This document shows, in pieces, positions 1 to 63,266 of a stretch of 64,000 nt of DNA. The first letter of the stretch is position 1; each line of letters opens with the position of its first letter. The stretch comes from Amphiscolops sp. MND2022 (lineage: Eukaryota). The notes below the pieces were generated by a model. That model was not told the origin of the DNA and made no database searches. It saw only the letters and a list, made by a program, of their open reading frames with translations. The translations under genes and the position numbers were made by a program. The DNA lies in contig OZ076409.1 in NCBI GenBank assembly GCA_964187785.1, positions 26,476,001-26,540,000 on the forward strand, given 5' to 3'.

Positions 1-3000
1 AAGAATGTGAAGAAACAATCGATGCCACCGAGCACTGCGACAAAAAGCTCGGCTATGATGTCTCCTGCGGAAGATGATGTCTCTTGAGTCGGTTAAACTG
101 GTAGTGAACACATGTGCGCCATTGGAAGAGTCCACCGGAGTGTATGTTCATATGAGTGTTTCATATTTTATTAAACATGATGATATTTCGAATGAACGTG
201 ACGTACTTTGAATATTTTTTTTGAAAACATGCATTACAGATGTTCTTGGAAATGGGCAAAAAATATTGTAAAGGACTGGCTTTAGCTGACGCTTAAGTTA
301 CCGCAGAACTATTGAACGGCTGCAGTGTAACGTCACACAAAGAGTTGCAAGCGAACAAGGACAACAAAAATTCCGAATTGGAAGACCATCTGACTGAAGA
401 GTACCAAATATCGTTGAAAGATTTTTTCCAACCGATCAAGTTCATTATTGACCGGCCAGACGTTATACAAGTCTTGACGTTTTCGCAAGAAGAGATGTGG
501 AAAAAAGTATCGGAATGAACTTAGCTGGGTTGTTGGCTAATATTCCAACATCTGAAGAGTTGCCAGCGGATGCTCATGTATCTCTGTTCCAGCGAAAAAA
601 AAGAACAATTGATGGTAGCGCCTTTGTCTTTCGTTGACCATTCTCGCTGGCCAAACTTATTTCACACTATAAATCAAGAAGTGATGTCACTCAGGTCTCT
701 TCGGACAAGGACGGAGGGTGAAAAAATAACTGAAGTATGGGCTGGAATATTTTGGCAATTACAACGAAGAATGTTTGTGTCCACATATAGAACACCATTC
801 AAAGGTGAAGATCTTTTGGAGTGTGTTGGCGATGCTCCGACCTTATACGGTCGCAAAATTGCCCGGAGGCTCTGGTCGAGAGAGGAGCTCAGTAACTCCA
901 TTATGTCCCCGGGGAAAAATTTGGAGTTCAGGGAGTATCCCCGCAGTCCCATGACTCCAACGCGGAAGCTCTCTTCCATGGTTAATAGTTTCATGGCGAG
1001 AATTGATTTGCGGAAGTAAAAAGTTCTGCATGTATCGTTGTAATTTGATGTTTTAACCTTAGGTCGATGCATTGTTTGAAAATATGCACGCTATAGATGC
1101 TTGTTCGAAAGTTTTTGTTTCGTTGATAATTTTTGTTTGCTCAGAGCGCGTTGAACACAAGTTCCTTTCCCTTCCGGGATGCTAGATCAAGTCCCGCAAC
1201 AGCGTCGACCATTTGGGAACGGAGCTGAAAAACAGTTCTAAGAACGTGAAGAAACAATCGATGCCACAGAGCACTGCGACAAAAAGCTCGGCTATGATGT
1301 CTCCTGCGGAAGATGATGTCTCCTGAGTCGGTTAAACTGGTAGTGAACACATGTGCGCCATTGGAAGAGTCCACCGGAGTGTATGTTCATATGAGTGTTT
1401 CATATTTTATTAAACATGATGATATTTCGAATGAACGTGACGTACTTTGAATATTTTTTTTGAAAACATGCATTACAGATGTTTTTGGAAATGAGCAAAA
1501 ATTATTGTAAAGGACTGGCTTTAGCTGACGTTTAAGTTACCGCAGAACTATTGAACGGCTGCAGTGTAACGTCACACAAAGAGTTGCAAGCGAACAAGGA
1601 CAACAAAAATTCCGAATTGGAAGACCATCTGACTGAAGAGTACCAAATATTGTTGAAAGATTTTTTACAACCGATCAAGTTCATTATTGACCGGCCAGAC
1701 GTTATACAAGTCTTGACGTTTTCGCAAGAAGAGATGTGGAAAAAGGTATCGGAATGAACTTAGCTGGGTTGTTGGCTAATATTCCAACATCTGAAGAGTT
1801 GCCAGCGGATGCTCATGTATCTCTGTTCCAGCGAAAAAAAGAACAATTGATGGTAGGGCCTTTGTCTTTCGTTGACCATTCTCGCTGGCAAAACTCATTT
1901 CACACTATAAATCAAGAAGTGATGTCACTCAGGTCTCTTCGGACAAGGACAGAGGGTGAAAAAAATAACTGAAGTATGGGCTGGAGTATTTTGGCAATTA
2001 CAACGAAGAATGTTTGTGTCCACATATAGAACACCATTCAAAGGTGAAGATCTTTTGGAGTGTGTTGGCGATGCTCCGACCTCATACGGTCGCAAAATTG
2101 CCCGGAGGCTCTGGTCGAGAGAGGAGCTCAGTAACTCCATTATGTCCCCGGGGAAAAATTTGGAGTTCAGGGAGTATCCCCGCAGTCCCATGACTCCAAC
2201 GCGGAAGCTCTCTTCCATGGTTAATAGTTTCATGGCGAGAATTGATTTGCGGAAGTAAAAAGTTCTGCATGTATCGTTGTAATTTGATGTTTTAACCTTA
2301 GGTCGATGCATTGTTTGAAAATATGCACGCTACAGATGCTTGTTCGAAAGTTTTTGTTTCGTTGATAATTTTTGTTTGCTCAGAGCGCGTTGAACACAAG
2401 TTCCTTTCCCTTCCGGGATGCTAGATCAAGTCCCGCAACAGCGTCGACCATTTGGGAACGGAGCTGAAAAACAGTTCTAAGAATGTGAAGAAACAATCGA
2501 TGCCACCGAGCACTGCGACAAAAAGCTCGGCTATGATGTCTCCTGCGGAAGATGATGTCTCCTGAGTCGGTTAAACTGGTAGTGAACACATGTGCGCCAT
2601 TGGAAGAGTCAACCGAAGTGTATGTTCATATGAGTGTTTTATATTTTATTAAACATGATGATATTCCGAATGAACGTGACGTAATTTGAATAATTTTTGG
2701 AAACATGCATTACAGATGTTCTAGGAAATGAGCAAAAATTATTGTAGAGAACTGGCTTTAGTTGACGTTTAAAGTTACCGCAGAACTATTGAACAGCTGC
2801 AGTGTAACGTCACTTGAATAGTTGCAAGCAAACAAGGACAACAAAAATTCCGAATTGGAAGACCATCTGACTGAAGAGTACCAAACATCGTTGAGCGATT
2901 TTTTCCAACTGATCAAGTTCATTATTCACTGGCCAGACGTTTTACAAGTCTTGACGTTTTCGCAAAAAGAGATGTGGGAAAAGGTATCGGAAAGAACTTA

Positions 3001-6000
3001 GCTGGGTTGTTGGCTAATATTCCAACATCTGAAGAGTTGCCAGCGGATGCTCATGTATCTGTGTTCCAGCGCAAAAATGAACAATTGGTGATAGGGCCTT
3101 TGTCTTTCGTTAACCATTCTCGCTGGCCAAATTCATTTCACACTATAAATCAAGAAGTGATGTCACTCAGGTCTCTTCGAACAAGGCAGGAGGGTGAAGA
3201 AATAACTGAAGTATGGCATGGAATAATTTGGGCAATTACAACGAGGAATGTTTGTGTCCACATATAGAACTCCATTCAAGGGTGAAGATCTTTTGGAGTG
3301 TGCTGGCGATGCTCCGACCTTATACGGTCGCAAAATTGCCCGAAAGCTCTGGTCGAGAGAAGAGCTCAGTAACTCCATTGTCCTCGGGGAAAGATTTGGA
3401 GTTCAGGGAGTATCCCCGCAGTCCCATGACACCGCCGCAAAAGCTCTCTTCCGTGGTTAATAGTTTCTTCGCGAGAATTGTTTTCCGTAAGTAAAAAGTT
3501 CTGCATGTATCGTTGTAATTTGATGTTTTAACCTTAGGTCGATGCATTGTTTGAAAACATGCACGCTATACATGCTTATTCGAAGGTTTTTATTTCGTTG
3601 ATATTTTTTGTTTGCTCAGAGCGCGTTGAACACAAGTTCCTTTCCGTTCCGGGATGCTAGATCAAGTCCCGCAACTGCGTCGACCATTCGGGAACGGAGC
3701 TGAAAAACCGTTCTAAGAATGTGAAGAAGCAATCGATGCCACCGAGCACTGCGACAACAAGCTCGGCTATGATGTCTCCTGTGGAAGATGATGTCTCCTG
3801 AGTCGGTTACATTGGCAATGAACACATGTGCGCCATTGGAAGAGTCAACCGAAGTGTATGTTCATATGAGTGTTTTATATTTTATTAAACATGATGATAT
3901 TCCGAATGAACGTGACGTACTTTGAATAATTTTTGGAAACATGCATTACAGATGTTCTTGGAAATGAGCAAAAATTATTGTAGAGAACTGGCTTTAGTGG
4001 ACGTTTAAGTTACCGCAGAAATATTGAACAGCTGCAGTGTAACGTAACTTAAATAGTTGCAAGCGAACAAGGACAACAAAAATTCCGAATTGGAAGACCA
4101 TCCGACTGAAGAGTACCAAACATCGTTGATTTTTTCCAACCGATCATGTTCATTATTCACCGGCCAGATGTTATACAAGTCTTGACGTTTTCGCAAGAAG
4201 AGATGTGGAAAAAGGTATCGGAATGAACTTAGCTGGGTTGTTGGCTAATATTCCAACATCTGAAGAGTTGCCACCAGATGCGCATGTATCTGTGTTCCAG
4301 CGCAAAAATGAACAATTGATGGTAGGGCCTTTGTCTTTCGTTAACCATTCTCGCTGGCCAAACTCATTTCACACTATAAATCAAGAAGTGATGTCATTCA
4401 GGTCTCTTCGGAAAAGGAAGGAGGGTGAAGAAATAACTGAAGTATGGGCTCGAGTATTTTGGCAATTACAACGAAGAATGTTTGTGTCCACATATAGAAC
4501 TCCATTCAAGGGTGAAGATCTTTTGGAGTGTGCTGGCGATGCTCCGACTTATACGGTCGCAAAATTGCCCGGAAGCTCTGGTCGAGAGAGGAGCTCAGTA
4601 ACTCCATTATGTCCCCGAAGAAAGATTTGGAGTTCAGGGAAAATCCCCGCAGTCCCATGACACCAACGCGAAAGCTCTCTTTCATGGGTAATAGTTTCTT
4701 TGCGAGAAATGTTTTCCGGAAGTAAAAAGTTCTGCATGTATCGTTGTAATTTGATGTTTTAATTTTAGGTCGATGCATTGTTTCAAAATATGCACGCCAT
4801 AGATGCTTATTCGAAAGTTTTTGTTTCGTTGATGTTTTCTGTTTGCTCAGAGCGCGTTGAACACAAGTTCCTTTCCGTTCCGGGATGCTATATCGAGTCC
4901 CGCAACAGCGTCGACCATTTGGGAACGGAGCTGAAAAACCGTTCTAAGAATGTGAATAAGCAATCGATGCCACCGAGCACTGCGACAACAAGCTCGGCTA
5001 TGATGTCTCCTGTGGAAGATGATGTCTCCTGAGTCGGTTACAAGGGTAATGAACACATGTGCGCCATTGGAAGAGTCAACCGGAGTGTATGTTCATATGA
5101 GTGTTTTATATTTTATTAAACATGATGATAATTCGAATGAACGTGACGTACTTTGAATAATTTTTGGAAACATGCATTACAGATGTTCCTGGAAATGAGC
5201 AAAAAATATTGTAAAGAACTGGCTTCAGCTGACGTTTAAGTTACCGCAGAACTATTGAACAGCTGCAGTGTAACGTCACACAAAGAGTTGCAAGCGAACA
5301 AGGACAACAAAAATTCCGAATTGGAAGACCATCTGACTGAAGAGTACCAAACATCGTTGAAAGATTTTTCCAACCGATCTAGTTCATTATTCACCGGTCA
5401 GATGTTATACAAGTCTTTACGTTTCCGCAAGAAGAGATGTGGAAAAGGTATTGGAATGAACTTAGCTGGGTTGTTGGCTAGTATTCCAACATCTGAAGAG
5501 TTGCCAGCGGATGCTCATGTTTTTCCAACCGATCAAGTTCATTATTCACCGGCCAACAGGCCAGACGTTATACAAGTCTTGACGTCTTCGCAAGAAGAGA
5601 TGTGGAAAAAGGTATCGGAATGAACTTAGCTGGGTTGTTGGCTGATATCCCAACATTTGAAGAGTTGCCAGCGGATGCTCATGTATCCGTGTTCCAGCGC
5701 AAAAATGAACAATTGATGGTAGGGCCTTTGTCTTTCGTTAACCATTCTCGCTGGCCAAACTCATTTCACACTATGAATCAAGAAGTGATGTCACTCAGGT
5801 CTCTTCGGACAAGGAAGGAGGGAGAAGAAATAACTGAAGTATGGGCTGGAGTATTTTGGCAATTACAACGAGGAATGTTTGTTTCCACATATAGAACTCC
5901 ATTCAAGGGTGAAGATCTTTTGGAGTGTGCTGGCGATGCTCCGACCTTATACGGTCGCAAAATTGCCCGGAAGATCTGGTCGAGAGAGGAGATCAGTAAC

Positions 6001-9000
6001 TCCATTATGTCCCCGGGGAAAGATTTGGAGTTGAGGGAGTATCCCCGCAGTCCCATGACACCAACGCGAAAACTCTCTTCCATGGTTAATAGTTTCTTCG
6101 CGACAACTGTTTTCCGGAAGTAAAAAGTTTTGCATGTATCGTTGTAAGTTTTAACCTTAGGTCGATGAATTGTTTGGAAATATGCACGCTATAGATGCTC
6201 ATTCGAAGGTTTTTGTTTGGTTGATATTTTTTGTTTGCTCAGAGCGCGTTGAACACAAGTTCCTTTCCGTTCCGGGATGCTAGATCAAGTCCCGCAACAG
6301 CGTCGACCATTTGAGAACGGAGCTGAAAAACCGCTCTAAGAATGTGAAGAAGCAATCGATGCCACCGAGCACGGCGACAACAAGCTCAGCTATGATGTCT
6401 CCTGCGGAAGATGATGTCTCATGAGTCGGTAAAATTGGTAGTGAACAGATGTGCGCCACTGGAAGAGTCAACCGGAATGTATCTCATATGAGTGTCTCAT
6501 CTTTTATCAAACATGATATTTCGAATGTACGTGACGTACTTTGAATATTTTTTTGAAAACATGCATTACAGATTGTTCTTGGAGATGAGCAAAAATTGTT
6601 GTAAAGAACTGGCTTTTGGTAACGCTTAAGTTACCGCAGAATTATTGAACGGCTGCAGTGTAACGTCACACAAAGAGTTGCAAGCGAACAAGGACAACAA
6701 AAATTCCGAATTGGAAGACCATCTGAGTGAAGAGTACCAAACATCGTTGAAAGATTTTTTCCAACCGATCTAGTTCATTATTCACCGGTCAGACGTTATA
6801 CAAGTCTTGACGTTTTCGCAAGAGGAGATGTGGAAAAAGGAATCGGAATGAACTTAGCTGGGTTGTTGGCTGATATTCCAACATCTGAAGAGTTGCCAGC
6901 GGTTCCTCATGTATCTGTGTTCCAGCGCAAAAATGAACAATTGATGGTAGGGCCTTTGTCTTTCGTTAACCATTATCGCGGGCCAAACTCATTTCACACT
7001 ATGAATCAAGAAGTGATGTCACTACGGTCTCTTCGGTCAAGGAAGGAGGGTGAAGAAATAACTGAAGTATGGCATGGAGTAATTTGGGCAATTACAACGA
7101 GGAATGTTTGTGTCCTCATATAGAACTCCATTCAAGAGTGAAGATCTTTTGGAGTGTGCTGGCGATGCTCCGACCTTATACGGTCGCAAAATTGCCCGGA
7201 AGCTCTGGTCGAGAGAGGAGCTCAGTAACTCCATTATGTCCCCGGGGAAAGATTTGGAGTTCAGGGAGTATCCCCGCAGTCCCATGACACCAACGCGAAA
7301 ACTCTCTTCCATGGTTAATAGTTTCTTCGCGAGAACTGTTTTCCGGAAGTAAAAAGTTTTGCATGTATCGTTGTAATTTGAAGTTTTAACCTTAGGTCGA
7401 TGAATTGTTTGGAAATATGCACGCTATAGATGCTTATTCGAAGGTTTTTGTTTGGTTGATAATTTTTGTTTGCTCAGAGCGCGTTGAACACAAGTTCCTT
7501 TCCGTTCCGGGATGCTAGATCAAGTCCCGCAACAGCGTCGACCATTTGAGAACGGAGCTGAAAAACCGCTCTAAGAATGTGAAGAAGCAATCGATGCCAC
7601 CGAGCACGGCGACAACAAGCTCGGCTATGATGTCTCCTGCGGAAGATGATGTCTCATGAGTCGGTAAAATTGGTAGTGAACACATGTGCGCCACTGGAAG
7701 AGTCAACCGGAATGTATCTCATATGAGTGTCTCATCTTTTATCAAACATGATATTTCGAATGTACGTGACGTACTTTGAATATTTTTTTGAAAACATGCA
7801 TTACAGATTGTTCTTGGAGATGAGCAAAAATTGTTGTAAAGAACTGGCTTTTGGTAACGCTTAAGTTACCGCAGAATTATTGAACGGCTGCAGTGTAACG
7901 TCACACAAAGAGTTGCAAGCGAACAAGGACAACAAAAATTCCGAATTGGAAGACCATCTGAGTGAAGAGTACCAAACATCGTTGAAAGATTTTTTCCAAC
8001 CGATCTAGTTCATTATTCACCGGTCAGATGTTATACAAGTCTTTACGTTTCCGCAAGAAGAGATGTGGAAAAGGTATTGGAATGAACTTAGCTGGGTTGT
8101 TGGCTAGTATTCCAACATCTGAAGAGTTGCCAGCGGTTCCTCATGTATCTGTGTTCCAGCGCAAAAATGAACAATTGATGGTAGGGCCTTTGTCTTTCGT
8201 TAACCATTCTCGCTGGCCGATTTCATTTCACACTATAAATCAAGAAGTGATGTCACTCAGGTCTCTTCGGAAAGGGAAGGAGGGTGAAGAAATAACTGAA
8301 GTATGTGCTCGAGTATTTTGGCAATTATAACGAGGAATGTTTGTGTCCACATATAGAACTCCATTCAAGGGTGAAGATCTTTTGGAGTGTGCTGGCGATG
8401 CTCCGACTTATACGTCGCAAAATTGCCCGGAAGCTCTGGTCGAGAGAGGAGCTCAGTAACTCCATTATGTCCCCGGGGAAAGATTTGGAGTTCAGGGAGT
8501 ATCCCCGCAGTCCCATGACACCAACGCGAAAACTCTCTTCCATGGTTATTAGTTTCTTCGCGAGAACTGTTCTTCCGGAAGTAAAAAGTTTTGCATGTAT
8601 CGTTGTAATTTGAAGTTTTAACCTTAGGGCGATGAATTGTTTGGAAATATGCACGCTATAGATGCTTATTCGAAGGTTTTTGTTTGGTTGATATTTTTTG
8701 TTTGCTCAGAGCGCGTTGAACACAAGTTCCTTTCCGTTCCGGGATGCTAGATCAAGTCCCGCAACAGCGTCGACCATTTGAGAACGGAGCTGAAAAACCG
8801 CTCTAAGAATGTGAAGAAGCAATCGATGCCACCGAGCACGGCGACAACAAGCTCAGCTATGATGTCTCCTGCGGAAGATGATGTCTCATGAGTCGGTAAA
8901 ATTGGTAGTGAACAGATGTGCGCCACTGGAAGAGTCAACCGGAATGTATCTCATATGAGTGTCTCATCTTTTATCAAACATGATATTTCGAATGTACGTG

Positions 9001-12000
9001 ACGTACTTTGAATATTTTTTTGAAAACATGCATTACAGATTGTTCTTGGAGATGAGCAAAAATTGTTGTAAAGAACTGGCTTTTGGTAACGCTTAAGTTA
9101 CCGCAGAATTATTGAACGGCTGCAGTGTAACGTCACACAAAGAGTTGCAAGCGAACAAGGACAACAAAAATTCCGAATTGGAAGACCATCTGAGTGAAGA
9201 GTACCAAACATCGTTGAAAGATTTTTTCCAACCGATCTAGTTCATTATTCACCGGTCAGACGTTATACAAGTCTTGACGTTTTCGCAAGAGGAGATGTGG
9301 AAAAAGGAATCGGAATGAACTTAGCTGGGTTGTTGGCTGATATTCCAACATCTGAAGAGTTGCCAGCGGTTCCTCATGTATCTGTGTTCCAGCGCAAAAA
9401 TGAACAATTGATGGTAGGGCCTTTGTCTTTCGTTAACCATTATCGCGGGCCAAACTCATTTCACACTATGAATCAAGAAGTGATGTCACTACGGTCTCTT
9501 CGGTCAAGGAAGGAGGGTGAAGAAATAACTGAAGTATGGCATGGAGTAATTTGGGCAATTACAACGAGGAATGTTTGTGTCCTCATATAGAACTCCATTC
9601 AAGAGTGAAGATCTTTTGGAGTGTGCTGGCGATGCTCCGACCTTATACGGTCGCAAAATTGCCCGGAAGCTCTGGTCGAGAGAGGAGCTCAGTAACTCCA
9701 TTATGTCCCCGGGGAAAGATTTGGAGTTCAGGGAGTATCCCCGCAGTCCCATGACACCAACGCGAAAACTCTCTTCCATGGTTAATAGTTTCTTCGCGAG
9801 AACTGTTTTCCGGAAGTAAAAAGTTTTGCATGTATCGTTGTAATTTGAAGTTTTAACCTTAGGTCGATGAATTGTTTGGAAATATGCACGCTATAGATGC
9901 TTATTCGAAGGTTTTTGTTTGGTTGATAATTTTTGTTTGCTCAGAGCGCGTTGAACACAAGTTCCTTTCCGTTCCGGGATGCTAGATCAAGTCCCGCAAC
10001 AGCGTCGACCATTTGAGAACGGAGCTGAAAAACCGCTCTAAGAATGTGAAGAAGCAATCGATGCCACCGAGCACGGCGACAACAAGCTCGGCTATGATGT
10101 CTCCTGCGGAAGATGATGTCTCATGAGTCGGTAAAATTGGTAGTGAACACATGTGCGCCACTGGAAGAGTCAACCGGAATGTATCTCATATGAGTGTCTC
10201 ATCTTTTATCAAACATGATATTTCGAATGTACGTGACGTACTTTGAATATTTTTTTGAAAACATGCATTACAGATTGTTCTTGGAGATGAGCAAAAATTG
10301 TTGTAAAGAACTGGCTTTTGGTAACGCTTAAGTTACCGCAGAATTATTGAACGGCTGCAGTGTAACGTCACACAAAGAGTTGCAAGCGAACAAGGACAAC
10401 AAAAATTCCGAATTGGAAGACCATCTGAGTGAAGAGTACCAAACATCGTTGAAAGATTTTTTCCAACCGATCTAGTTCATTATTCACCGGTCAGATGTTA
10501 TACAAGTCTTTACGTTTCCGCAAGAAGAGATGTGGAAAAGGTATTGGAATGAACTTAGCTGGGTTGTTGGCTAGTATTCCAACATCTGAAGAGTTGCCAG
10601 CGGTTCCTCATGTATCTGTGTTCCAGCGCAAAAATGAACAATTGATGGTAGGGCCTTTGTCTTTCGTTAACCATTCTCGCTGGCCGATTTCATTTCACAC
10701 TATAAATCAAGAAGTGATGTCACTCAGGTCTCTTCGGAAAGGGAAGGAGGGTGAAGAAATAACTGAAGTATGTGCTCGAGTATTTTGGCAATTATAACGA
10801 GGAATGTTTGTGTCCACATATAGAACTCCATTCAAGGGTGAAGATCTTTTGGAGTGTGCTGGCGATGCTCCGACTTATACGTCGCAAAATTGCCCGGAAG
10901 CTCTGGTCGAGAGAGGAGCTCAGTAACTCCATTATGTCCCCGGGGAAAGATTTGGAGTTCAGGGAGTATCCCCGCAGTCCCATGACACCAACGCGAAAAC
11001 TCTCTTCCATGGTTATTAGTTTCTTCGCGAGAACTGTTCTTCCGGAAGTAAAAAGTTTTGCATGTATCGTTGTAATTTGAAGTTTTAACCTTAGGGCGAT
11101 GAATTGTTTGGAAATATGCACGCTATAGATGCTTATTCGAAGGTTTTTGTTTGGTTGATATTTTTTGTTTGCTCAGAGCGCGTTGAACACAAGTTCCTTT
11201 CCGTTCCGGGATGCTAGATCAAGTCCCGCAACAGCGTCGACCATTTGAGAACGGAGCTGAAAAACCGCTCTAAGAATGTGAAGAAGCAATCGATGCCACC
11301 GAGCACGGCGACAACAAGCTCGGCTATGATGTCTCCTGCGGAAGATGATGTCTCATGAGTCGGTAAAATTGGTAGTGAACACATGTGCGCCACTGGAAGA
11401 GTCAACCGGAATGTATCTCATATGAGTGTCTCATATTTTATCAAACATGATATTTCGAATGTACGTGACGTACTTTGAATATTTTTTTGAAAACATGCAT
11501 TACAGATTGTTCTTGGAGATGAGCAAAAATTGTTGTAAAGAACTGGCTTTTGGTAACGCTTAAGTTACCGCAGAATTATTGAACGGCTGCAGTGTAACGT
11601 CACACAAAGAGTTGCAAGCGAACAAGGACAACAAAAGTTCCGAATTGGAAGACCATCTGACTGAAGAGTACCAAACATCGTTGAAAGATTTTTTCCAACC
11701 GATCAAGTTCATTATTCACCGGCCAACCGGCCAGACGTTATACAAGTCTTGACGTTTTCGCAAGAGGAGATGTGGAAAAAGGTATTGGAATGAACTTAGC
11801 TGGGTTGTTGGCTGATATTCCAACATCTGAAGAGTTGCCAGCGGTTCCTCATGTATCTGTGTTCCAGCGCAAAAATGAACAATTGATGGTAGGGCCTTTG
11901 TCTTTCGTTAACCATTATCGCGGGCCAAACTCATTTCACACTATAAATCAAGAAGTGATGTCACTACGGTCTCTTCGGTCAAGGAAGGAGGGTGAAGAAA

Positions 12001-12074
12001 TAACTGTGAAGTATGGGCCGGGGTATTTTGGCAGTTGCAACGAGGAATGTTTGGGTCCACATATAGAACTCCAT
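1..12074. repeat. Tandem macrosatellite, ~1.23-kb unit, ~9.7 copies in the window (probably continues upstream of position 1)
   Basis: The anchor 'aagaa(t/c)gtgaa' recurs at 1, 1240, 2479, 3715, 4946, 6338, 7573, 8805, 10040 and 11272 (periods 1239, 1239, 1236, 1231, 1392, 1235, 1232, 1235, 1232). Similarity stops abruptly after 'atagaactccat' at ~12074. Confidence 0.98.
5602..6123 (+). pseudogene. BEN-domain-like protein fragment; longest open copy in the macrosatellite (homologous copies at e.g. 570-1019, 1956-2258, 7104-7352, 9571-9819)
   Basis: Translation ...APTLYGRKIARKIWSREEISNSIMSPGK...RSPMTPTRK. A downstream segment in each unit (open in 4778-5032) reads ERVEHKF...YIESRNSVDHLGTELKNR. 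This matches the BEN pattern (aR.L...LFs.EEL..s...G....r..ld..k...v...f...i...in....). Copies carry different frameshifts and stops. Recognised by eye only. Confidence 0.6.
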
Positions 12075-12599
12075 GGGAGAAGTGTCGTGGTATCGAACCA
12101 GATCACAAGCAAGGGTGGCCGGTGAAAAGGTAGTGTCGTTGAATCTGAAGGCTTGAGAAGAAAAATTACAAAAAATGTCGGAAGCAAATGTTTCATCGCA
12201 AAGGTCTTTCAACCAAGCCTAGTTGATTATCGCTAGTTTTCGCTCAAAAAACATTCACCAGGTCAAAAAAAGAATTAGTTCGAAATGTATTAATACATTG
12301 TGAAAAAGGAGATCATTAGTACTTCCAATCTTTTAAAATTCGGTCTGTATTTATACTACAGGAATCGACTCGAAAAAAAATAGTTGCAATAATCAACTGG
12401 GAGGTACAGAAGTGTAAAACGTGTACGGAACATACCATTTGTGGCGTCGTTGGAAGGTACAGTTCTTCTCGAGGCAAGCAAATGAAGACAAAAGCAGAAA
12501 GTCAGCTATACGAAATACACTAGAAATACATAATCTGAGTCTTCTCTTCTACGCTCAGAATCCATGGATGTATTCGACGACAACTAATTTTCCGTTCAT

Positions 12600-14796
12600 G
12601 AAGCATCAGTTGCAGAGGGAAGTGAATTAATTTGCGTTGAACCTGTTCGTTGCACGACGCCTCTCCACCTTCCATGTTCGTTAGAGGTTTCTCTGCCGCA
12701 GGAAGCTTCTCTCGATGGTGATAATTCTTCCGACAACGACTTCTTCCTATTCGACGCCGCTCAAACAACCATGGACAAAATCGAAAAATTGATCATTGAT
12801 TACGCCGTGTGACATAGGTTACCGGACAATGCCCTTGAGGAGCTCTTGAAAAGGAACTATCAAAGCAACTCCTACCAAAGCCGAACAGCGTTCCCAACAG
12901 GGATGGGTTGACCATATGTCATGTGTGTCTTTGCAACTAAGATTTTTCAAACATTTTCACTTTAAAACGAGTCCATGGGCGATTTCATGTTCCAAGCTGG
13001 CTTCTTTCCGCCGAAGAAAAACAAATGGTATTGGCAAAATTTTTTGATTACCACGTCCACTCTGAATCTTTTTATACGATCTTAGCCTATGCCACCTACC
13101 CCACACAAACCAATCCTACAGGCAACACTGTGAAATTCTGTTTGCCTAGAAAGCTCATGATCCTCTTTGGCCGTTTCAATTTGGCCTGCAGCGCTGCGTG
13201 CTTTCCTAGCTAATTGAGTCTATTATTTGGTTTTGATGTGAGGGATTTTTCCGTTTGGTTCTGAAGAGAACTTTCAATACAATTGTGGAACTACTGTCAT
13301 CTCGCTTCCAATCCAAGGATATGGGTATTTTTTAAAAGATTTTTTTTGCCGTGGCGTGTAAATTATGACCCGAAAACGCAGGAGGTTGTACTCCATCAAA
13401 TAGCTCATCGCTGTTCTCATTCAGTCTCAAGCATAGTGGAACCCAAGTAGCTTCTGATGGAATTGAAGTGCTAGCCCTCTGAAGTCAGCTTTTGAATGTT
13501 GTGGATAGGAATTCTGATGCTCTTTTGCTTGAAAAAACACTGACTTCATTTATGAATACTGATGGTAAAACGCCTTTCCGTTCGGCGAAGAAAACTTTGT
13601 GGCCTTTCTGGGCTATATCGATACCCTACCAAATTCTCGGCGAGCTGCGTTCGAGAATTTGGCGTTAATTGCTGGAAAGAATCGTTAACACCACATTTTT
13701 GAGTCATAGGTCCAATGATAGGATAAGAATTGAACGAATATTATCGGATGTTTACAGCAACAAACTCTCGAGCACTTCGCAATCGAATTGAAAGACTATT
13801 TTTGCGAACTGGTTGCTAATTAAAGAAAATCATACATTTGAAACTGGAGAGCCTTTAGGTGCTTTCCAGAACAACTTCCCGCAGTTATATAGCCTTGACT
13901 CTCAGAGTTTCAATTCTCAATCACTGAGAGATTTGTGCGACCAGGTCCGATGTAAAAGTCCTCTCTGGAGGAACTCAGCTTTTGTGTTCGAGTTAGCCAA
14001 TCTTTTCCTTCTGAGATCTGTTCAAGGAACCAGGAAAAAACTTTCATATGTAGTGGATAACTTCGTCTTCCGTCAAAACAAGTATCCAACTCGTGTTTTT
14101 TTTGGAAACGTTTTTCGATGACCGTTTCACTGAAGTATCTGAAGAGTGCAGGAAGTTTGCTTTAATCGGATGCGGACCTGGAGGGTTGAAAAGTCGTCAT
14201 TTTTTCCTCAGCGGTCAAAAACTTTACCGTCTCTCGCCTACAAAAGACTCGGCGGCAATTGGAGCGAAGGCCTAACCAGGCTAACAAGCAACAAAATTGT
14301 AGGGGCAGTTGCTGACCACAGTGACTCAGCACAATCAAACAGTGTCATTGTTGTGAGTTACCGTGCAAAGTCACTTTGAAACCTTTTATCGAGACACCTG
14401 GACTTTCTTTTTCGCTACGTTTGGCGAATTAGACGAACATTTTTGTTGTCGCAGCCAAAGAGTTTCTCACATTGCGCGATATTGTTCTCTCTGGAAACTT
14501 GGAAAGCTGTTTGATCAGTTTATTGAGAGAAGGTTTCGATCAAAATTACACTTGTATTTAAACATTGCCGGGTGTTCATGATCACTAAATTTGATTTTAC
14601 TATCAATTGGAAAGTTTTTCTTCCAAATGCTATGTCGCAAATTTCATTGACGTGATTTTTGGACGTAAATTTCAACCTATAATTTCATGAAACTATACTC
14701 AGTACCATGTTGATTTGTTTCTCAGAGGAAAAAGTTCAAAATTGAATAATCAATTACTCTTTCTTTACCAGAGTCCATATGTTGGGTGACTCAAAT
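12600..14796 (+). pseudogene. Decayed CMC/EnSpm (CACTA)-superfamily transposase, copy 1
   Basis: ~12790-12855 reads LIIDYAV*HRLPDNALEELLK (N-terminal helix motif). ~13549-13620 reads FMNTDGKTPFRSAKKTLWPFWA (Transposase_21-type NTDG..F.S...LWP motif with the first catalytic D). 13813-14121 contains LYSLDSQSFNSQSLRDLCDQVRCKSPLWRNSAFVFELANLFLLRSVQGT (DUF4218-like 'HL..QV..GPLW..SAF.FE..N'). Stops, frameshifts and an internal deletion are present. Confidence 0.8.
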
Positions 14797-16657
14797 CAAC
14801 TAAGATTTTTCAAACATTTTCACTTTAAAACGAGTCCATGGGCGATTTCATGTTCCAAGCTGGCTTCTTTCCGCCGAAGAAAAACAAATGGTATTGGCAA
14901 AATTTTTTGATTACCACGTCCACTCTGAATCTTTTTATACGATCTTAGCCTATGCCACCTACCCCACACAAACCAATCCTACAGGCAACACTGTGAAATT
15001 CTGTTTGCCTAGAAAGCTCATGATCCTCTCTGGCCGTTTCAATTTGGCCTGCAGCGCTGCGTGCTTTCCTAGCTAATTGAGTCTATTATTTGGTTTTGAT
15101 GTAAGGGATTTTTCCGTTTGGTTCTGAAGAGAACTTTCAATACAATTGTGGAACTACTGTCATCTCGCTTCCAATCCAAGGATATGGGTATTTTTTAACA
15201 GATTTTTTTTGCCGTGGCGTGTAAATTATGACCCGAAAACGCAGGAGGTTGTACTCCATCAAATAGCTCATCGCTGTTCTCATTCAGTCTCAAGCATAGT
15301 GGAACCCAAGTAGCTTCTGATGGAATTGAAGTGCTAGCCCTCTGAAGTCAGCTTTTGAATGTTGTGGATAGGAATTCTGATGCTCTTTTGCTTGAAAAAA
15401 CACTGACTTCATTTATGAATACTGATGGTAAAACGCCTTTCCGTTCGGCGAAGAAAACTTTGTGGCCTTTCTGGGCTATATCGATACCCTACCAAATTCT
15501 CGGCGAGCTGCGTTCGAGAATTTGGCGTTAATTGCTGGAAAGAATCGTTAACACCACATTTTTGAGTCATAGGTCCAATGATAGGATAAGAATTGAACGA
15601 ATATTATCGGATGTTTACAGCAACAAACTCTCGAGCACTTCGCAATCGAATTGAAAGACTATTTTTGCGAACTGGTTGCTAATTAAAGAAAATCATACAT
15701 TTGAAACTGGAGAGCCTTTAGGTGCTTTCCAGAACAACTTCCCACAGTTATATAGCCTTGACTCTCAGAGTTTCAATTCTCAATCACTGAGAGATTTGTG
15801 CGACCAGGTCCGATGTAAAAGTCCTCTCTGGAGGAACTCAGCTTTTGTGTTCGAGTTAGCCAATCTTTTCCTTCTGAGATCTGTTCAAGGAACCAGGAAA
15901 AAACTTTCATATGTAGTGGATAACTTCGTCTTCCGTCAAAACAAGTATCCAACTCGTGTTTTTTTTTGGAAACGTTCGATGACCGTTTCACTGAAGTATC
16001 TGAAGAGTGCAGGAAGTTTGCTTTAATCGGATGCGGACCTGGAGGGTTGAAAAGTCGTCATTTTTTCCTCAGCGGTCAAAAACTTTACCGTCTCTCGCCT
16101 ACAAAAGACTCGGCGGCAATTGGAGCGAAGGCCTAACCAGGCTAACAAGCAACAAAATTGTAGGGGCAGTTGCTGACCACAGTGACTCAGCACAATCAAA
16201 CAGTGTCATTGTTGTGAGATACCGTGCAAAGTCACTTTGAAACCTTTTATCGAGACACCTGGACTTTCTTTTTCGCTACGTTTGGCGAATTAGACGAACA
16301 TTTTTGTTGTCGCAGCCAAAGAGTTTCTCACATTGCGCGATATTGTTCTCTCTGGAAATTTGGAAAGCTGTTTGATCAGTTTATTGAGAGAAGGTTTCGA
16401 TCAAAATTACACTTGTATTTAAACATTGCCGGGTGTTCATGATCACTAAATTTGATTTTACTATCAATTGGAAAGTTTTTCTTCCAAATGCTATGTCGCA
16501 AATTTCATTGACGTGATTTTTGGACGTAAATTTCAACCTATAATTTCATGAAACTATACTCAGTACCATGTTGATTTGTTTCTCAGAGGAAAAAGTTCAA
16601 AATTGAATAATCAATTACTCTTTCTTTACCAGAGTCCATATGTTGGGTGACTCAAAT
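14797..16657 (+). repeat. Second, near-identical tandem copy (1863-bp period) of 12934-14796 containing the transposase remnant
   Basis: 'caactaagatttttcaaacattttcac' occurs at 12934 and 14797. ORFs 13025/14888 and 13813/15676 are offset by exactly 1863. The second copy ends at 'gttgggtgactcaaat' (~16657). Confidence 0.97.
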
Positions 16658-17210
16658 CTCAAAAGGTGTCTGGCACCTTTCTCGAGAGACAAAGACCTTC
16701 TCCGCGTATCTCCAATTCAAGTAAGTGGTCGAATTGTTGGAAGTTGAAGGTTCTAGTTTGACTGGATACTAAATCTCAAATCCCTTTTCAGTAGCTAAAT
16801 TCATTCGTACCTCGAGAGCGGTCTTCGACCTACTTTCCTTGCGAAGTACTTGGAACTGGCAAAATCTTTAGATAGCGTGATCATCTTCTGTGGCAACAAT
16901 GAACTATCAACTTCCATACAAAAGGTATCTCAAAGATCTCAAAGCAAAGAAGCCGGAATCTGTAGCTGCTAGCCTAATAGATTTGAAAGAGTTGCTTCTC
17001 CGAGGAAATACCATGATACAAGTAAAAGTCCTCGTTCTTATTTCGAGACCTGATTTTAGCTGCGAGGTTTTTCAGGCAACAAATGAAATACTATTGGAGC
17101 AAATTCCCGAATGCAATGCCAGCCCCAGGGATATAAGAGCCTCGGGGCATTTCGACTGGGACTATGTCCATTCAAATAAAAACCTCGGTGTTTTTCAAAC
17201 TGCACGATAG
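16633..17210 (+). pseudogene. SGNH/GDSL hydrolase (esterase) remnant, intron-containing, frameshifted
   Basis: Block I 'VHMLGDSNLKR' follows the acceptor tttaccag. There is a donor caa|gtaagt at ~16721 and an acceptor ccttttcag at ~16791. Block III 'VIIFCGNNEL' is at ~16878-16907. After a frameshift the ORF reads VKVLVLISRPD...TNEIL...HFDWDYVHSN (block V DxxH). Confidence 0.7.
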
Positions 17211-17782
17211 TTCAAAAGAATAATTGAATCTCTGCTTTGATTGCTGTTTTGAACTTGAGTCTGGTATCTTCAATTTTCATTTCAAAATATTACAGATCTG
17301 ACATTAGTTGGTAATTTTCAGATCCTACTGCTCTGACCAACAAGTCCGCAACTTGAAAAGCCTATTCAAACAACAGTTACTTGAGTTACTCCGGCGGCAA
17401 TAACTGTTCCTACTTTCGGAATCGATGTAACATCTTTTTGATCAGAGACATTCACAATTTCCATTGCGTCTATACTTGGAGATTGAAAAGCTGTTTTTGG
17501 AAACATTCGAAAAACTCTTCACACGAAGGTTTATCTGGCAGAGTCGAACATGTATTTTGTCCGAGAACTTTTTGATTATCGTCTTACATTTGTTGCCTTT
17601 TCACATGGAATTTTTGATGCTATTTTCGGAAAACTTCAGAAAAAACTTTTCTCAATATACTGACTGCAATATTGAGCAAAAATGTCGAAGAGTCGTTTGA
17701 CATTCTATCCTGAACCGGTGCATTCCAATTGTTTGAAAATTTCTCGCTTTTCGTCTGATATTAGGTTTTGTCGATATATATC

Positions 17783-20273
17783 TGCTAAGATCTCGTTTTT
17801 ATCTATTAAAAACGATGTTGGTGGCAAGTAAATCTCTTTCAACTGTACTGTGCCAGAGTATACTTTTTGACTGAATATCTAAATGTAACAACATAAATAA
17901 GACAGAAATCAATTAGAGTTTGTTTGTAAAAATAATCAAGCAACTCTCTGTCTATGGTAGTTTAGTCTGTGTGAAATGGTTTGACCTCTACATTCCACAT
18001 TCCCCCTCCTCCCGATGGATTCGGTTGTGGGCGATCGTTTTGTTTGGTAGTTCCGAATTAATCGGTTAAGGTTTTGGTTTTCCACCGTTGTCCGTATTTC
18101 ACGGTTGATTGTCCGTATTTCACAGTTAGTTTCTTCTTCATTGTGTGATTGATTCGGTTGACTGGTTTGGCTTCCCTGTAAAACACAATTATTATTTGTT
18201 TTCTTTTTATTATTTGTATGGTACGGGACACCGCCTAATTTTTCGGCTTGTTTTGCATTGGGTATTCTTCTCGACTTTCTCACCGTTTGGTGGGGTTTCA
18301 GACAGTAAATTCGTTGTTATACCTGATTCGGGAGTTGGGTTTGTTTCCTTCGGAAGCAGCTGTAGTTCCTCTACGTTGGTATGGACGGGCTTTCATTCGT
18401 TGGTATTGTAGCATTGGAAATCGTCGTCATCGGATACCATGCTTAAGTCGGTGTCCATTGGTTATCCTGCCGACTTGTCGGGACTTGTGAATTGGCCTTT
18501 TTCATTTCTTGGTTGGTCCTTTCTTTTTAGCCAATCAGCACTGTTCTCCGTGTTCTCCGGTCTTGGTGTCTCTTTTCTGCGGTACATGCAGGTAGTTTCG
18601 GCTGTTTTTGAGCAGGATGGCTTGTCGATTGTGGTTGTCAGTCTAGTGCTGATTCTTTTCGTTGGTGTTGCTGTTGCCTGAAAGGGCATCGGGTTAGACA
18701 TTAGTTTCCTCTGTAGAGTTTTATTCATGTCAGTAGTTACGGTGTGTTTGGTCCCCAAAACCGCGATTTGCGGTTTATTGTTAAATTTTCTTCCAAGCGA
18801 CCTTTTTGTATGTGCTTTTTCGAAAAAAGTAAACGGATAATTAGTATTTTTCCCGTTACTTACCGTATTTGACGGTTTTTGCTTTGGGTGAAGGTCATTC
18901 CTCTCCGATATTTCGGGTCGTTGATTTTCTTCTTCGACATCACCAGAAGGTCTGTGATCTCGCCGGCAGTGTTGCGGGTGATGTAGAGTGATAAGTCCTT
19001 GACGTCAACTGAAATAGCATTTTTTAAGTCAGATAGTTTTGTCCCGGGTTCTCGTCCAAAATGCAGTTCAAAAGGGGTTTTCTTCATTTCTGAATGTATA
19101 GTAAAACGGGGGACATATAGTGCTTTGTTTAAGCTTTCTCGTAGGTTTTGTGTTTCTTCTAAGTTTGTCTTTATCAGATTCTTCAGTGATTGGATGGTTC
19201 TTTCAACCAATCCGGTACCAGTGTGAAGGTTTGGTGTACCGTATTTACGGATTATATTGTATTCTTTGCAGAAGCTTTTATATTCTTTTGAAATAAAAGC
19301 GCTGCCGTTGTCCGATGTAATTGTTTTCGGTACTCCGTATACGTTTATGTATTCCCGTAGGAATGTTATAACCGTATCGAGGTTTGTATTTTTACACATT
19401 TTTGCTACCGGCCAGCGGCTATTTTTATCTACGGCTACTAATATAAAGGGGGAGGAATCTAAGTGTTTACTGTTAAGGTTTCCCGTGAAATCGATTTGGA
19501 TTTCCTCTCCTGGGTATTTTGGCGGTTCAAGTTTGGATTTTTCAGTGCTAGGTAGTTGTGTTTTTAAATTCTTACCGGCATTTAGGCATGCGCAACAAGT
19601 TTTCGCGTTCTTCTCTATGTCCGCTCGCATATTTGGCCACCAGAAGAAAACTGCGTCATTGCACATCTTGTTTATTCCTGGGTGGCCGAAATGTAACGCG
19701 TTGAGTGCGGCGTATCGCGGGCTTCTTGGAATGATGATTCGATCATCCACCGTCGTTATTTTCCAGCGGTGAGACAGTTTCTCCGCTACTTGCTTGTAGT
19801 CTTCTGGGATAGCCTGGATGTTATTTTCTTCGATGCAGCACTGTACTTCAATTAAGTCTGGGTCGGCTGCTGTTTCTTTGATCAGCGTCTCCAGGTCGAG
19901 CATAAAATCAAGTTCCGCGGATCTGATGTTATCCTCTTGCTGGCGCTTTCTCGCTGCCTTTGTTTCGATGATTTTTTAATCCGCACATAATGAACGGCTA
20001 TTTCCTCGATCGGGCAGTCACGGTATTCTTGAACAGGGATTGCTGGGTATGATCCCGGTTCTTCTGTTATTACCTGTTCTTCTGGTGACGAGGAGACCGT
20101 GGATTCGGTATCTGGTGCGGCTTTCTGGGTGCTGATGGTTTCTGGGTTTGTTTCGGCTGATGTGCCGGGTGTTTCTGGGATTTCGTCCCTAAAGTTTTTA
20201 AAATAACCGCCTCCGATATGTGTGACGCGGTTTTCCTCTTTTCTTCGTAGACGAATGTCCTCTTCATTCCACA
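17783..20273 (-). mobile_element. Internally deleted Ty3/Gypsy LTR retrotransposon
   Basis: An integrase ORF lies inside. The minus-strand polypurine tract GGGAGGAGGGGGAA (18000-18013) is followed directly by TGTGGAATG...TTAGCA (putative 3' LTR 17783-17999, TG...CA). The 5' end at 20273 begins with nearly the same 15 nt (TGTGGAATGAAGAGG). Flanks are atatc / aaatc (imperfect 5-bp TSD), and the element splits a host repeat. Confidence 0.8.
18860..19903 (-). CDS. Ty3/Gypsy integrase (H2C2 zinc finger + rve DDE core), remnant of pol
   Basis: LHFGHPGINKM...WWPNMRADI...CCAC (HHCC); QIDFTG, VAVDKNSRWP, YGVPKTITSDNGSAF, TGLVERTIQSLK (D-D-35-E); KTPFELHFGR. Confidence 0.93.
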   Translation of the reverse strand: MLDLETLIKETAADPDLIEVQCCIEENNIQAIPEDYKQVAEKLSHRWKITTVDDRIIIPRSPRYAALNALHFGHPGINKMCNDAVFFWWPNMRADIEKNAKTCCACLNAGKNLKTQLPSTEKSKLEPPKYPGEEIQIDFTGNLNSKHLDSSPFILVAVDKNSRWPVAKMCKNTNLDTVITFLREYINVYGVPKTITSDNGSAFISKEYKSFCKEYNIIRKYGTPNLHTGTGLVERTIQSLKNLIKTNLEETQNLRESLNKALYVPRFTIHSEMKKTPFELHFGREPGTKLSDLKNAISVDVKDLSLYITRNTAGEITDLLVMSKKKINDPKYRRGMTFTQSKNRQIR

Positions 20274-20276
20274 AAA

Positions 20277-21880
20277 TCCAATAATTTTTTTCTAAACTAT
20301 CCGAATTTTTGACGTAATATCTGAAGTGAAGAGCTATATCCCAATTTCCGACGTTATATCGGAACTATATTGCGTTTACCGCGGAGAAGGCGGATGTTCG
20401 TTATATTCGAACTTCAGAAATGTTTTCCGAGCACGAAAGGAACCTCAGCTGTTTTTCGGAACATTTTGTGTTTTTCATAATGTCCGAGCTTAGTTCAAAA
20501 ACTTGATCTTTTCAAACTTCGGTATAGCGCCGACTTGCGAGCAATATTGAGCAAAAACGTTGAGTACTACTTGACACCCAGACTCTAACTGATGCCACTG
20601 ATCTTTTTGGAACTTTGGGTTTCGTCTCGCTTTGAATCAGAGAATTGAATGTGTTAAAAATTCTTTTATTTCAGACTCTTAAGTCGTGTTAGTTTTCTGG
20701 TCACATCGTCCTTGCAGTTGGAGTGCTTCAGAGATGGCCGCAGTTCAAACTGACGCTACAGACGATTAAGATGTGGCAGCTGATTTCCCAATTCGGTGGC
20801 TTTGAAATCCAAGAACTTTTTGATTTTTCTCGTATAATGTTTGCGTTTTTACTTGGAATCTTTGAAGCTGTTTCCGGAACCTTTCGGGGAAAATTTCATA
20901 CGAAGTTTTTTTGAAACATTCGAACAAGTTTTGTTGTTATCGAAACCTTTATTTTCAACTTACTGATTGCCAAATTGAGCAAAAATCTCGAGTACTAATT
21001 TGACACCCTCACCTGAACCATGTCTTGCCTTGTATCAAAATACGAAAGTATTAGAAATTTGCATTTCAGACTCTCTAATCGTGGAAAATTTCTGGTCTCG
21101 TCGTCCTTGCAGTTAGAGTGCTTCAGAAGTGACCGCAGTTCTAACTGACGTTTGAGATGTGGAAACTGGATTTTCAATTCTCTGGCTTTTTAATCCGAGA
21201 ACTTTTTGATTATTGTCTTACATTTTTGCCTTTTTACATGGAAATTTCGATGCTGTTTTCAGAAAACTTCAGATAAAATTTCATAAGAGGTTTTTGTAAA
21301 GCATACGAACATGTTTCTTTTGTTATCGAAACTTTTTTTCATTATACTGATTGCAATAATGAGCAGAAATGTCGAGGAGTAGTTTGACTTTCTATCCCGA
21401 ACCGATGCCTGTGAATTGTTTGAAAATTTCTCACTTTTCGTCTGATATTCGGTTTTGTCCATATATTTCCAATAATTTTTGAGGTAATAGCTATCCAAAT
21501 TTTTGAGGTAATATCCGAAGTGAAGAGCTATATCCCAACTTTCGACGTTATATCCGAACGTTTCGGAACATTTTCTGAGTTTTTATCACGTTCGAGCATA
21601 TTTTAAAAACATTGATCTTTTTGAGCCTTTGGTTGAGCGCCGACTTGAAGACAATATTGATCAAAAATGTCGAGTACTATTTGACAACCTTACTTGAACC
21701 TATTGTCTCTGATTTGTTCGAAAACCTTGCTTTTTGTCTAGCTTTGAATCAAAGTATCCAATGTTTTAGAAACTCTTTTGTTTCAAACTCTCCAACCGTG
21801 GTAGTTTTCTGGTCTCGTCGTCCTTGCAGTTGCAGTGCTCCAGACGTGGTCACAGTTCTAGCTGACGTTTCAGTCGTTTG
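20277..21880. repeat. Degenerate clustered repeats (also ~17300-17780), related to the HINE-like family
   Basis: Variants of 'gagcaaaaatgtcgagtacta(t)ttgacacc' and 'tcgtccttgcagtt(g/a)gagtgcttcaga' recur near 17672, 20548, 20976, 21360 and 21657. 'gcgccgactt' occurs at ~20527 and ~21637. Confidence 0.6.
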
Positions 21881-22444
21881 AGAAGTGACACCTGGTTTGG
21901 TTTTGCAGATTTGAGAAGCTACGAACTCGTATTGGCCTAAGCAACTTCGCATGATTTGATAAATAATTTCGAATGCTTATTAACTGTCTTTTGTTTATTT
22001 GTCTCCTTTTGTGATGATAGAATTGATTTTTTCCATTGGATTGACTGTTCGAGGTTTCAAAGCTGTTCCAGGTTTAAGATCGATCGGAGCCTTCGTTTTT
22101 TTGCTTCCTAATTTTTCAAGGAAAGTCTGCACACTGCTTGGAAATTTTTTCAAAGTGCATGGATGTGCTTTAAGCATTTTACAACCTGCTTTGAAGTTTC
22201 ACAAAAATTTTCCATGCATGCTCTCTGAATTTTTCATGTTTTACAAAAAATTAGCCTGCATGTTTCCATGCAGCATGTAAAATGTTCAGGCAATCTCGAC
22301 TAGGGCAATATCTTCAAATCAAGTTCCATACATATTTGCTGTAACAGCACTAAAAGCTAGTAATTTGTAAATTTTGTAGAGTAATACAGAAAAATTGTCA
22401 CCATATTTTGAACTACATGCAATGTTTGCTGGACTTTTGAACTA

Positions 22445-22622
22445 CAGTAAACCCTCGATTATACGCCTTTCGATTATCCGCCAACTTTGGACATCCGCCA
22501 CAAAGCTACCGCGACATTTTGCTATAACACCCGTTTCTAAGCTCCCTTGATTAACCGCCACTCTCACTGATCCGCCATAATTCACGCTGGACCGATGGTG
22601 GCGGATAATCGAGGGTTTACTG
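22445..22622. mobile_element. 178-bp Tc1/mariner-pogo (Tigger-like) MITE
   Basis: 23-bp TIRs CAGTAAACCCTCGATTATACGCC / GGCGGATAATCGAGGGTTTACTG (1 mismatch), flanked by TA at 22443-22444 and 22623-22624. Confidence 0.9.
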
Positions 22623-23310
22623 TACATGTATGTAATGTTTGCCTTATTCTAAATTTGCTAGAGACCACACTTAGTCAGGAGTACCAAACAGCAAAATTTG
22701 AGCTAGTTTTGTCCCTTGTCGAAAATCAGTTTTCGTGTAAATTTTCAAATTCGTCTGTTTCGTCTCGCTCCCCTTTGGTATGGCGTTTTTCAGATATAAT
22801 AAAGTCACCTATTGCACCCTCATGGGCAAATGTAAAACATGAATTACACTGTTTAAAGTCATCGAATACAGACCGCATTAGTTCAGAATTTTCAATATTA
22901 GAAGCCGCGACCCCGAAAAAAACCGCAGCTAGTAATTGAGTCAAAATAGTCACGAGAAGACGTGTCAAAATGCGCTTGAATTTCGATTTCAGGAAATACG
23001 GCAATGAAACACTCACCAAAATCCCTTCAGATAAATATAATAAAAGCAGCAGTAAGAACGAATAAGTCTGAAGAAATCAATGGAGCGAATGAAAGTCATA
23101 AGCTAGAAATATCATAGACGTATGCCTGACTCTATTTTGATGTCTATCGCTCAATGCACAAAGCGCATTTCTGAGAAAAGCAAAATATGAAATGACTGAG
23201 TGAAAGCACGTAAGGTTTCTGAAGCACCAGAATAGCACTAAAATCAGACAAATACGGCAGATAGCGAAGACACAAAGGGGGGTAGGTTGGCTTGACGAGT
23301 TTATTATCAC

Positions 23311-28180: not shown

Positions 28181-28189
28181 TGCGGGGGC

Positions 28190-28960: not shown

Positions 28961-29044
28961 TCATTTTTATTTTGAAAGTTATGTTTAATATTGCAACTTT
29001 TTATTGATCTACGCCATTGAATTAACTCTTCTTCTATTCAATTA

Positions 29045-45555: not shown

Positions 45556-53158
<7,603 letters not shown>

Positions 53159-54494: not shown

Positions 54495-63266
<8,772 letters not shown>

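Follow-up and report, generated by a model that had tools for sequence, protein, structure and literature searches.

A decayed CMCT/EnSpm-type transposon copy in Amphiscolops sp. MND2022 and its likely Suv4-20-like SET cargo

Introduction

What kind of element left behind the decayed coding sequences that fill some 17 kb of a contig of Amphiscolops sp. MND2022, and which of these genes belonged to it? The window analysed here is a stretch of 64,000 nucleotides (assembly GCA_964187785.1, contig OZ076409.1, positions 26,476,001 to 26,540,000 of the forward strand), and a preliminary description, made from its letters alone, had proposed that three decayed genes on the same strand, a BEN-like gene, a CMC/EnSpm-type transposase and an SGNH esterase, formed one multi-gene transposon. 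In this work, we have used profile, structure and contig comparisons to decipher the origin of this locus. We propose, with a probability of about 0.62, that it is a dead copy of a CMCT/EnSpm-type transposon whose transposase likely travels with a Suv4-20-like SET gene and probably with the BEN gene, and that the SGNH-like gene may be a local passenger.

Results

Four decayed genes lie in the window copy in the order BEN, SET, CMC transposase and SGNH-like, all on the + strand and head to tail, with gaps of 160 bases between BEN and SET, about 327 between SET and transposase and 232 between transposase and SGNH. The strand and the decay given in the preliminary description are thus borne out, and its count of three becomes four, the SET gene having been missed. 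The features are as follows.

1..12074, + strand: tandem array whose unit is the 3' half of the BEN gene plus the whole SET gene; it goes on upstream of the window
799..1326, + strand: 3' half of the BEN gene in the first full unit (an exon up to 980 and the last exon, 1145-1326, flank an intron at 981-1144)
after 798, 2037, 3275, 4505, 5902, 7131, 8364, 9598 and 10831, + strand: chimeric SET/BEN junctions
10832..11358, + strand: last BEN 3' half, which ends 160 bases 5' of the SET start
11519..12236, + strand: terminal, non-chimeric SET gene, a pseudogene (tblastn to the intact relative P0005, residues 1-238)
12564..14546, + strand: CMCT/EnSpm-type transposase copy 1, dead (start at 12564 inferred; the match to the relative P0030 begins at 13429)
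14779..14796, + strand: SGNH-like stub of six codons, at the end of the first 1.86-kb duplication unit
14797..16407, + strand: second copy of the transposase, truncated at its 5' end, which belongs to the 1.86-kb duplication
16640..17252, + strand: SGNH-hydrolase-like pseudogene with an inferred 71-base GT-AG intron (16721-16791), assigned by motifs and their spacing

The transposase is, on its sequence, of the CMC (CMCT/EnSpm) type. Searching the longer proteins for its relatives gave one match among 606 candidates, a cluster of five (P0027-P0031), and the near-intact P0030 has D66, D150, CxxC at 169-172, HxxxH at 367-371 and E391; a D/D/E triad whose second D and E have C(2)C and H(3-4)H between them is the CMCT signature in the accessible part of PMC12730594. 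The long near-intact transposases are 95-97% identical to one another, as expected of recent copies. Atlas features gave a score of 0.98 to Transposase_21 clusters, with look-alikes from arthropods, rotifers and nematodes; DUF1258 matched the relatives at E 0.011-0.014, no Pfam match was obtained for DUF4218, and the predicted model (predicted local distance difference test, pLDDT, 35) was not used. Of the two CMC transposase copies described earlier the type therefore stands, its relatives carrying the CMCT motifs, and neither is complete: copy 2 lacks its 5' end, and both lack the relative's residues ~154-333, about 180 codons of the catalytic core. Both also carry frameshifts, many of them in copy 1, the CxxC has been lost by the deletion and the HxxxH is altered. 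Between SET and transposase, at 12380-12520, lies a short Cys/His-rich frame (CxxCxxHxxC) that is a possible zinc-finger exon and has no Pfam match.

The SET gene was recognised by the Pfam SET profile in two array frames of the window (E 3.3e-6 and 2.1e-5) and in the intact relative P0005, of 238 residues (E 2.5e-12), to which the terminal SET gene is 73% identical; this terminal gene has an early stop and a frameshift near residue 60. The ten best PDB matches of P0005 are all KMT5B/SUV420H1/H2 (E 9e-14 to 4e-12), followed by the viral vSET at 1.7e-5. Both P0005 and P0021 are closest to Suv4-20, with the SET-I serine and a post-SET zinc motif whose fourth ligand is uncertain. P0005 keeps the equivalents of Ser161 and Tyr217, the NHxCxPN motif and three of the four zinc cysteines; the last zinc Cys is replaced, and a His stands one place ahead of that site. 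Its methyl pocket is altered, with Trp174 changed to Met, Ala178 to Leu, Ile181 to Val and Phe191 to Tyr, the sites having been counted by hand along the alignment, with residue roles from the available text of PMC3874154 and an inferred 90-residue offset between h2 and h1. According to that text, the hydrophobic pocket formed by Phe191, Trp174, Ala178 and Ile181 sets the specificity of Suv4-20 for the step from me1 to me2, and a Phe-to-Tyr change in Suv4-20h1 caused a dramatic loss of activity. Because this pocket is changed, the SET gene appears to be Suv4-20-derived rather than a canonical member of the family: the host enzymes Suv4-20h1/h2 (KMT5B/C; PMC3874154, accessible part) are the best PDB match of P0005, from which they differ in the pocket, in the last Cys and in that P0005 has 238 residues only. 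A metagenome scan with P0005 yielded 4 loci, all of them unrelated SET proteins.

The gene upstream of SET in the array unit is a BEN-fold protein by the modelled structure of a relative, and DNA binding is predicted for it. Its first full 3' half has a frameshift ahead of the donor site and a stop in the last exon. Of the 29 matches of a HMMER search with the BEN half, 15 are short relatives and one is an array protein. The remaining 13, all of them long, were set aside as due to chance; the two that were scanned have bacterial Ig/secretion domains. The full BEN domain is supplied by P0043, from a 938-base contig and evidently spliced, which is 45% identical over 47 residues to the last exon in the window (E 6e-6); on the basis of this match we placed a phase-1 GT-AG intron at 981-1144. 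When the predicted model of P0043 residues 151-254 (pLDDT 76) was compared with known structures, Foldseek ranks 1-10 were all BEN, the best being Insv (prob 1.00, TM 0.64), and in VIA ranks 1-5 of 48,161 chains were all BEN (Z 6.2-7.8, root-mean-square deviation 2.9-3.4, 82-96 aligned), the next chain having Z 4.8. The Pfam BEN profile (PF10523) matched 0 of the 15 short relatives, most of which are exon pieces, profile searches of the PDB with the BEN relatives gave no match, and the Atlas search with the BEN half gave no usable one.

The third gene downstream of BEN is a probable SGNH esterase, as judged by motif only. Its blocks follow one another in order (GDS at 16646, SG at 16817, CGN at 16889-16897 and DxxH at 17160), at spacings of about 32/25/91 codons once the inferred intron is removed, against 34/29/84 in E. 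coli TesA; the I-III-V series has a single occurrence in the window and none in 200 shuffles, the pattern having been written after the motifs had been seen. The gene is 68% identical to its relative P0033. What the earlier assignment to the SGNH esterases lacks is a profile match: none was found in Pfam, NCBIfam, PHROGs or the PDB, nor against TesA, all the queries being fragments. Searching phages by tblastn with P0033 gave only 3 weak matches. The spacer 5' of this gene, at 16410-16640, has broken coding-looking frames and a good splice acceptor just 5' of the GDS, and SGNH may have an upstream exon.

Which of these genes occur together elsewhere? Linkage outside the window was judged at the level of contigs, equated solely by their size in bases. 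The four members of the intact SET cluster are on contigs of 59,041, 122,908 and 1,276,419 bases, and the five members of the transposase cluster on contigs of these same three sizes and of 253,888 bases, so that the transposase is present on 3/3 SET contigs and SET on 3/4 transposase contigs. The BEN cluster P0035 is on contigs of 849,758 (plus one unlisted), 149,233, 746,199 and 1,276,419 bases, and eight further one-member BEN clusters are on other contigs; the BEN family is thus dispersed, as mobile cargo would be. These contigs were looked up for 10 of the 15 short relatives, and the 50% representatives may mask copies that are closer. The SGNH search, made among proteins of 59-191 residues, had 2 matches among 6 candidates, namely the window copy and one on a contig of 179,040 bases. 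Scans of viral contigs and of prokaryotes found no relative.

How was the array formed? Its units, of 1229-1243 bases, are arranged head to tail, except for one of 1397 bases with an internal duplication, and the nine complete units, which include a recent two-unit repeat, are 92.2-100% identical. The array and the BEN fold of the gene that had been described as present in about ten copies are confirmed, and its unit is now seen to be the BEN 3' half plus the whole SET gene: SET is present ten times and the BEN 3' half nine times, with a further BEN tail at base 1, and the nine non-terminal SET copies are cut at one fixed junction and fused to the middle of the BEN gene. The window proteins are listed on a contig of 420,249 bases, together with six further array-type proteins and an un-chimeric BEN 5' exon, P0034, that lie outside the window. 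Because those six are not encoded in the window, the array must reach upstream of it; and because P0034 is an un-chimeric 5' exon, the array is a tandem duplication with breakpoints inside the BEN gene and near the end of the SET gene. Near-identical array proteins are also found on a contig of 118,620 bases, probably the other haplotype. An early in-frame stop is common to 10/10 SET copies, another stop to 8/9 BEN last exons, and a frame change near SET residue 60 to the array copies, and these common lesions indicate that already-dead DNA was amplified.

A second duplication involves the transposase. Its two 1.86-kb units (12934-14797 and 14797-16658) are 99.5% identical, with 6 substitutions and 4 gap columns, and the duplication is thus recent. 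As stated in the preliminary description, the first codons of SGNH fall inside this duplication, the unit ending six codons into the SGNH-like gene, and parts of the locus were amplified separately, one as the array of 1.24-kb units and the other as this duplication.

In the CMCT clade the ends have terminal inverted repeats of the form 5'-CA..TG, CAC..GTG in EnSpm (CACTA), and the target-site duplication is of 2-5 bases. Like the preliminary description, we found neither termini nor a target-site duplication: the window does not reach the 5' end, and there are no fitting paired arms in 12000-29000. Downstream of SGNH, from 17460 to 21900, degenerate repeats of ~385 bases occur in several copies, split by a Gypsy fragment, and parts of them recur at 38941-39112 and 48437-48606. 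Further on, a GCATG-rich stretch (22150-22305) with a CCC-type motif at 22295-22305, which we take to resemble animal EnSpm ends, is a candidate 3' end of this or of a different EnSpm-like element, partnerless in the window.

The window as a whole has about 40% G+C and short GT-AG introns, and contains copine genes and Gypsy and LINE fragments; taken with the BEN gene and the transposase look-alikes, this points to an invertebrate animal as the probable host. The features noted outside the locus are the following.

17885-20260, - strand: fragment of a Gypsy-type long terminal repeat (LTR) retrotransposon, with an integrase open reading frame (ORF) at 18860-19975 (Pfam rve, Integrase_H2C2), a polypurine tract and a short 3' LTR at ~17885-18000
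22443-22624: small element whose inverted repeats, of 25 bases, are 96% complementary and whose ends are presumably Tc1/pogo-like
26334-27599, - strand: 421-codon open frame without a convincing Pfam match
28150-28950, + strand: LINE reverse-transcriptase fragment that adjoins the 421-codon frame
29039-30227: tandem repeat of 413 bases, 2.9 copies
31360-34252: tandem repeat of 108 bases in 26.8 copies, its - strand containing long open frames
30336-30671: exon near the tandem repeats, which we take to be SMC-like
41309-42520, - strand: MYND-finger gene of 403 codons that has no intron (Pfam E 1.1e-8)
45500-49600 and 54500-57700, - strand: tandem pair of copine paralogues whose exons are 83-89% identical
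58316-58812: near-perfect palindromes of 165 and 100 bases; another, of ~240 bases, at 43554-43791

A Flavi_NS2A match on the minus strand (E 4e-4, below the cut-off) was rejected as noise.

Discussion

Our results show that SET recurs on what appear to be the same contigs as near-intact transposases, and the element therefore likely carries its own chromatin-marking enzyme. That SET and transposase form one mobile unit is the part that we consider likely; that BEN belongs to the same unit is favoured somewhat over the opposite. Several observations weigh against these proposals. It may be that the four transposase contigs are allelic and stand for one or two loci. A BEN relative is found on only one of them, of 1.28 Mb, which is weak support, and three of the four listed contigs of the BEN cluster P0035 are not transposase contigs. 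SGNH is on 0/4 transposase contigs and 0/3 SET contigs, so that of the single multi-gene element first proposed it is the pairing of SET and transposase on three contigs that stands. The structure searches uphold the BEN fold, with no Pfam match for BEN, SGNH or DUF4218, and Transposase_21 (PF02992) reached E 1.5e-4 and 21.5 bits with the transposase relatives, below the cut-off of 28.6. Moreover, the BEN model is that of a relative and not of the window gene, it had no Foldseek match at E 0.001, and a VIA Z under 8 can reflect a common helical arrangement. Finally, because Tyr stands at the site equivalent to Phe191, a SET of the P0005 type may be weak, or may act on another substrate or to another product state.

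How would such an element work? The DDE transposase would excise and insert the whole unit in cut-and-paste fashion. In maize En/Spm, TnpA binds repeats near the element ends, and by analogy the BEN protein would do so in this element. In animals, methylated H4K20 is linked with heterochromatin and silencing; the target of the SET protein would be a lysine, most likely H4K20, in the nucleosomes of the element itself, whose silencing would thereby be tuned. Since its pocket differs from that of the host Suv4-20, a different methyl state, or action without prior H4K20me1, is predicted. After the death of the window copy, two local tandem duplications, likely by unequal exchange, multiplied the BEN/SET stretch at least 10-fold and the transposase with the SGNH stub twofold.

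Could all four genes, SGNH included, be fixed parts of one large CMC element? The SGNH-like gene starts just 3' of the transposase on the same strand, and its decay is similar to that of SET, at 68% identity to P0033 and 73% to P0005. Helitrons, LINEs and rotifer retroelements are known to carry SGNH genes (PMC4021074 and PMC5408684, accessible parts), and gene calls blind to introns could hide other copies. Against this, the only other SGNH copy found is on the 179,040-base contig, and neither the 4 transposase contigs nor the 3 SET contigs include it; we regard a fixed place for SGNH as doubtful. A bolder version holds that an animal CMC element, of four genes with SGNH among them, captured its host's writer of H4K20 heterochromatin, rebuilt the pocket of this enzyme, pairs it with a BEN reader and re-marks its own copies, as a histone-level counterpart of the anti-silencing of plant VANDAL elements; this we consider unlikely.

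A pile of separate insertions, in which BEN, SET and SGNH were brought in by elements of another kind, such as a Helitron, and the CMC transposase just happens to lie among them, would fit with a transposon graveyard that has Gypsy and LINE fragments nearby and with the BEN relatives on many contigs without a listed transposase, and both SET and SGNH have been reported as Helitron cargo (10.1101/2025.02.11.637652, PMC4021074 and PMC5408684, as far as their available text goes). The presence of the transposase on all three SET contigs speaks against it, and no domain of a Helitron or other transposase was found in the six frames of 12100-17500 or in 38 downstream frames and ORFs, a part of all those frames. 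We therefore find this origin quite unlikely.

It could also be argued that the near-intact SET and transposase belong to a single host locus, domesticated or orthologous, of which several haplotypes or sister species are represented; this would make their co-occurrence a matter of synteny and not of co-mobility. Contig pairs do look allelic (P0030 is 99% identical to P0028/P0029, and P0005 97.5% to P0023), and no termini were seen. However, there are two sequence groups, 93-97% alike, and a far more diverged dead copy, which suggest several insertions, and the frames of P0028/P0029 and of P0021/P0022 are split, as happens when transposons decay; we judge a single host locus very unlikely and infer co-mobility.

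That selection maintains the array as a family of new SET-BEN fusion genes is hardly credible: a 2-base deletion in 9/9 chimeric units, not in the terminal SET copy, does bring the SET core and the BEN half into one frame and gives open frames (e.g. 5623-6123), and the ratios of non-synonymous to synonymous change (pN/pS) are 0.53 and 0.58, but the same deletion takes away the C-terminal Tyr and zinc motif of SET, the BEN half is frameshifted ahead of its intron and several units have further frameshifts. These ratios, which come from the indel-free copies after the indel-bearing ones had been dropped and from small counts (11 synonymous and 20 non-synonymous changes, 31 in all, in 6 distinct copies; 4 and 8, 12 in all, in 4 copies), are not read as selection.

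A transposon copy with the Suv4-20-like SET as its likely cargo can be compared with several known systems. As in the CMCT clade and EnSpm, the near-intact relatives have the DDE triad, in which C(2)C and H(3-4)H lie after the second D and before the E, the nearest profiles are Transposase_21 and DUF1258, and extra genes stand beside the transposase; here, in contrast, there are up to three accessory genes, one of them a SET gene of the Suv4-20 type, and the assignment is by transposase motifs, not by tree or termini. Enlarged En/Spm elements with 4-5 ORFs are described in the accessible part of PMC6431247. According to the available text of 10.1101/2025.02.11.637652, giant red-algal Plavaka (EnSpm) elements carry PAG1-3, with a SET cargo (PAG2) proposed as a chromatin modifier, and they are likewise multi-gene members of the EnSpm superfamily with SET among their accessory genes. 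There, SET is fused to an adenine methylase and has ParB and a 2OG-oxygenase as partners, whereas the window SET stands alone, is Suv4-20-like, has BEN and perhaps SGNH as partners and lies in a probable animal host. SET genes in HarbingerS, in oomycete MuDR and in Helitrons, as cited in the accessible parts of PMC12730594 and 10.1101/2025.02.11.637652, are also borne by DNA transposons, of other superfamilies and in other hosts. With the SGNH genes of transposons (ORF1 of CR1/L2/RTEX, texim of Helitrons, ORF3 of rotifer LTR elements; PMC4021074 and PMC5408684, in part) the window gene shares the S, G, N and H blocks in order and at typical spacing, a likeness by motifs alone, and it differs in that it adjoins a DDE transposase.

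The notable part of this locus is the Suv4-20-like cargo, and not the pair of BEN and SGNH. In the literature, with Repbase, subscription journals and preprint supplements outside our coverage, we found no report of Suv4-20, BEN or SGNH cargo in an animal EnSpm/CMC element, and the element may already be catalogued.

What does this mean for the biology of these transposons? The array clearly illustrates how internal transposon sequence can give rise to a satellite-like repeat. Chromatin enzymes encoded by transposons have been documented mainly from plants, fungi, oomycetes and algae. Although the copy in the window is dead, near-intact coding sequences exist in P0005 and P0030, which makes a direct assay feasible. 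If our proposal is true, a mobile Suv4-20 with an altered pocket, beside a BEN reader of DNA, would be a case of a transposon editing the very mark that silences it.

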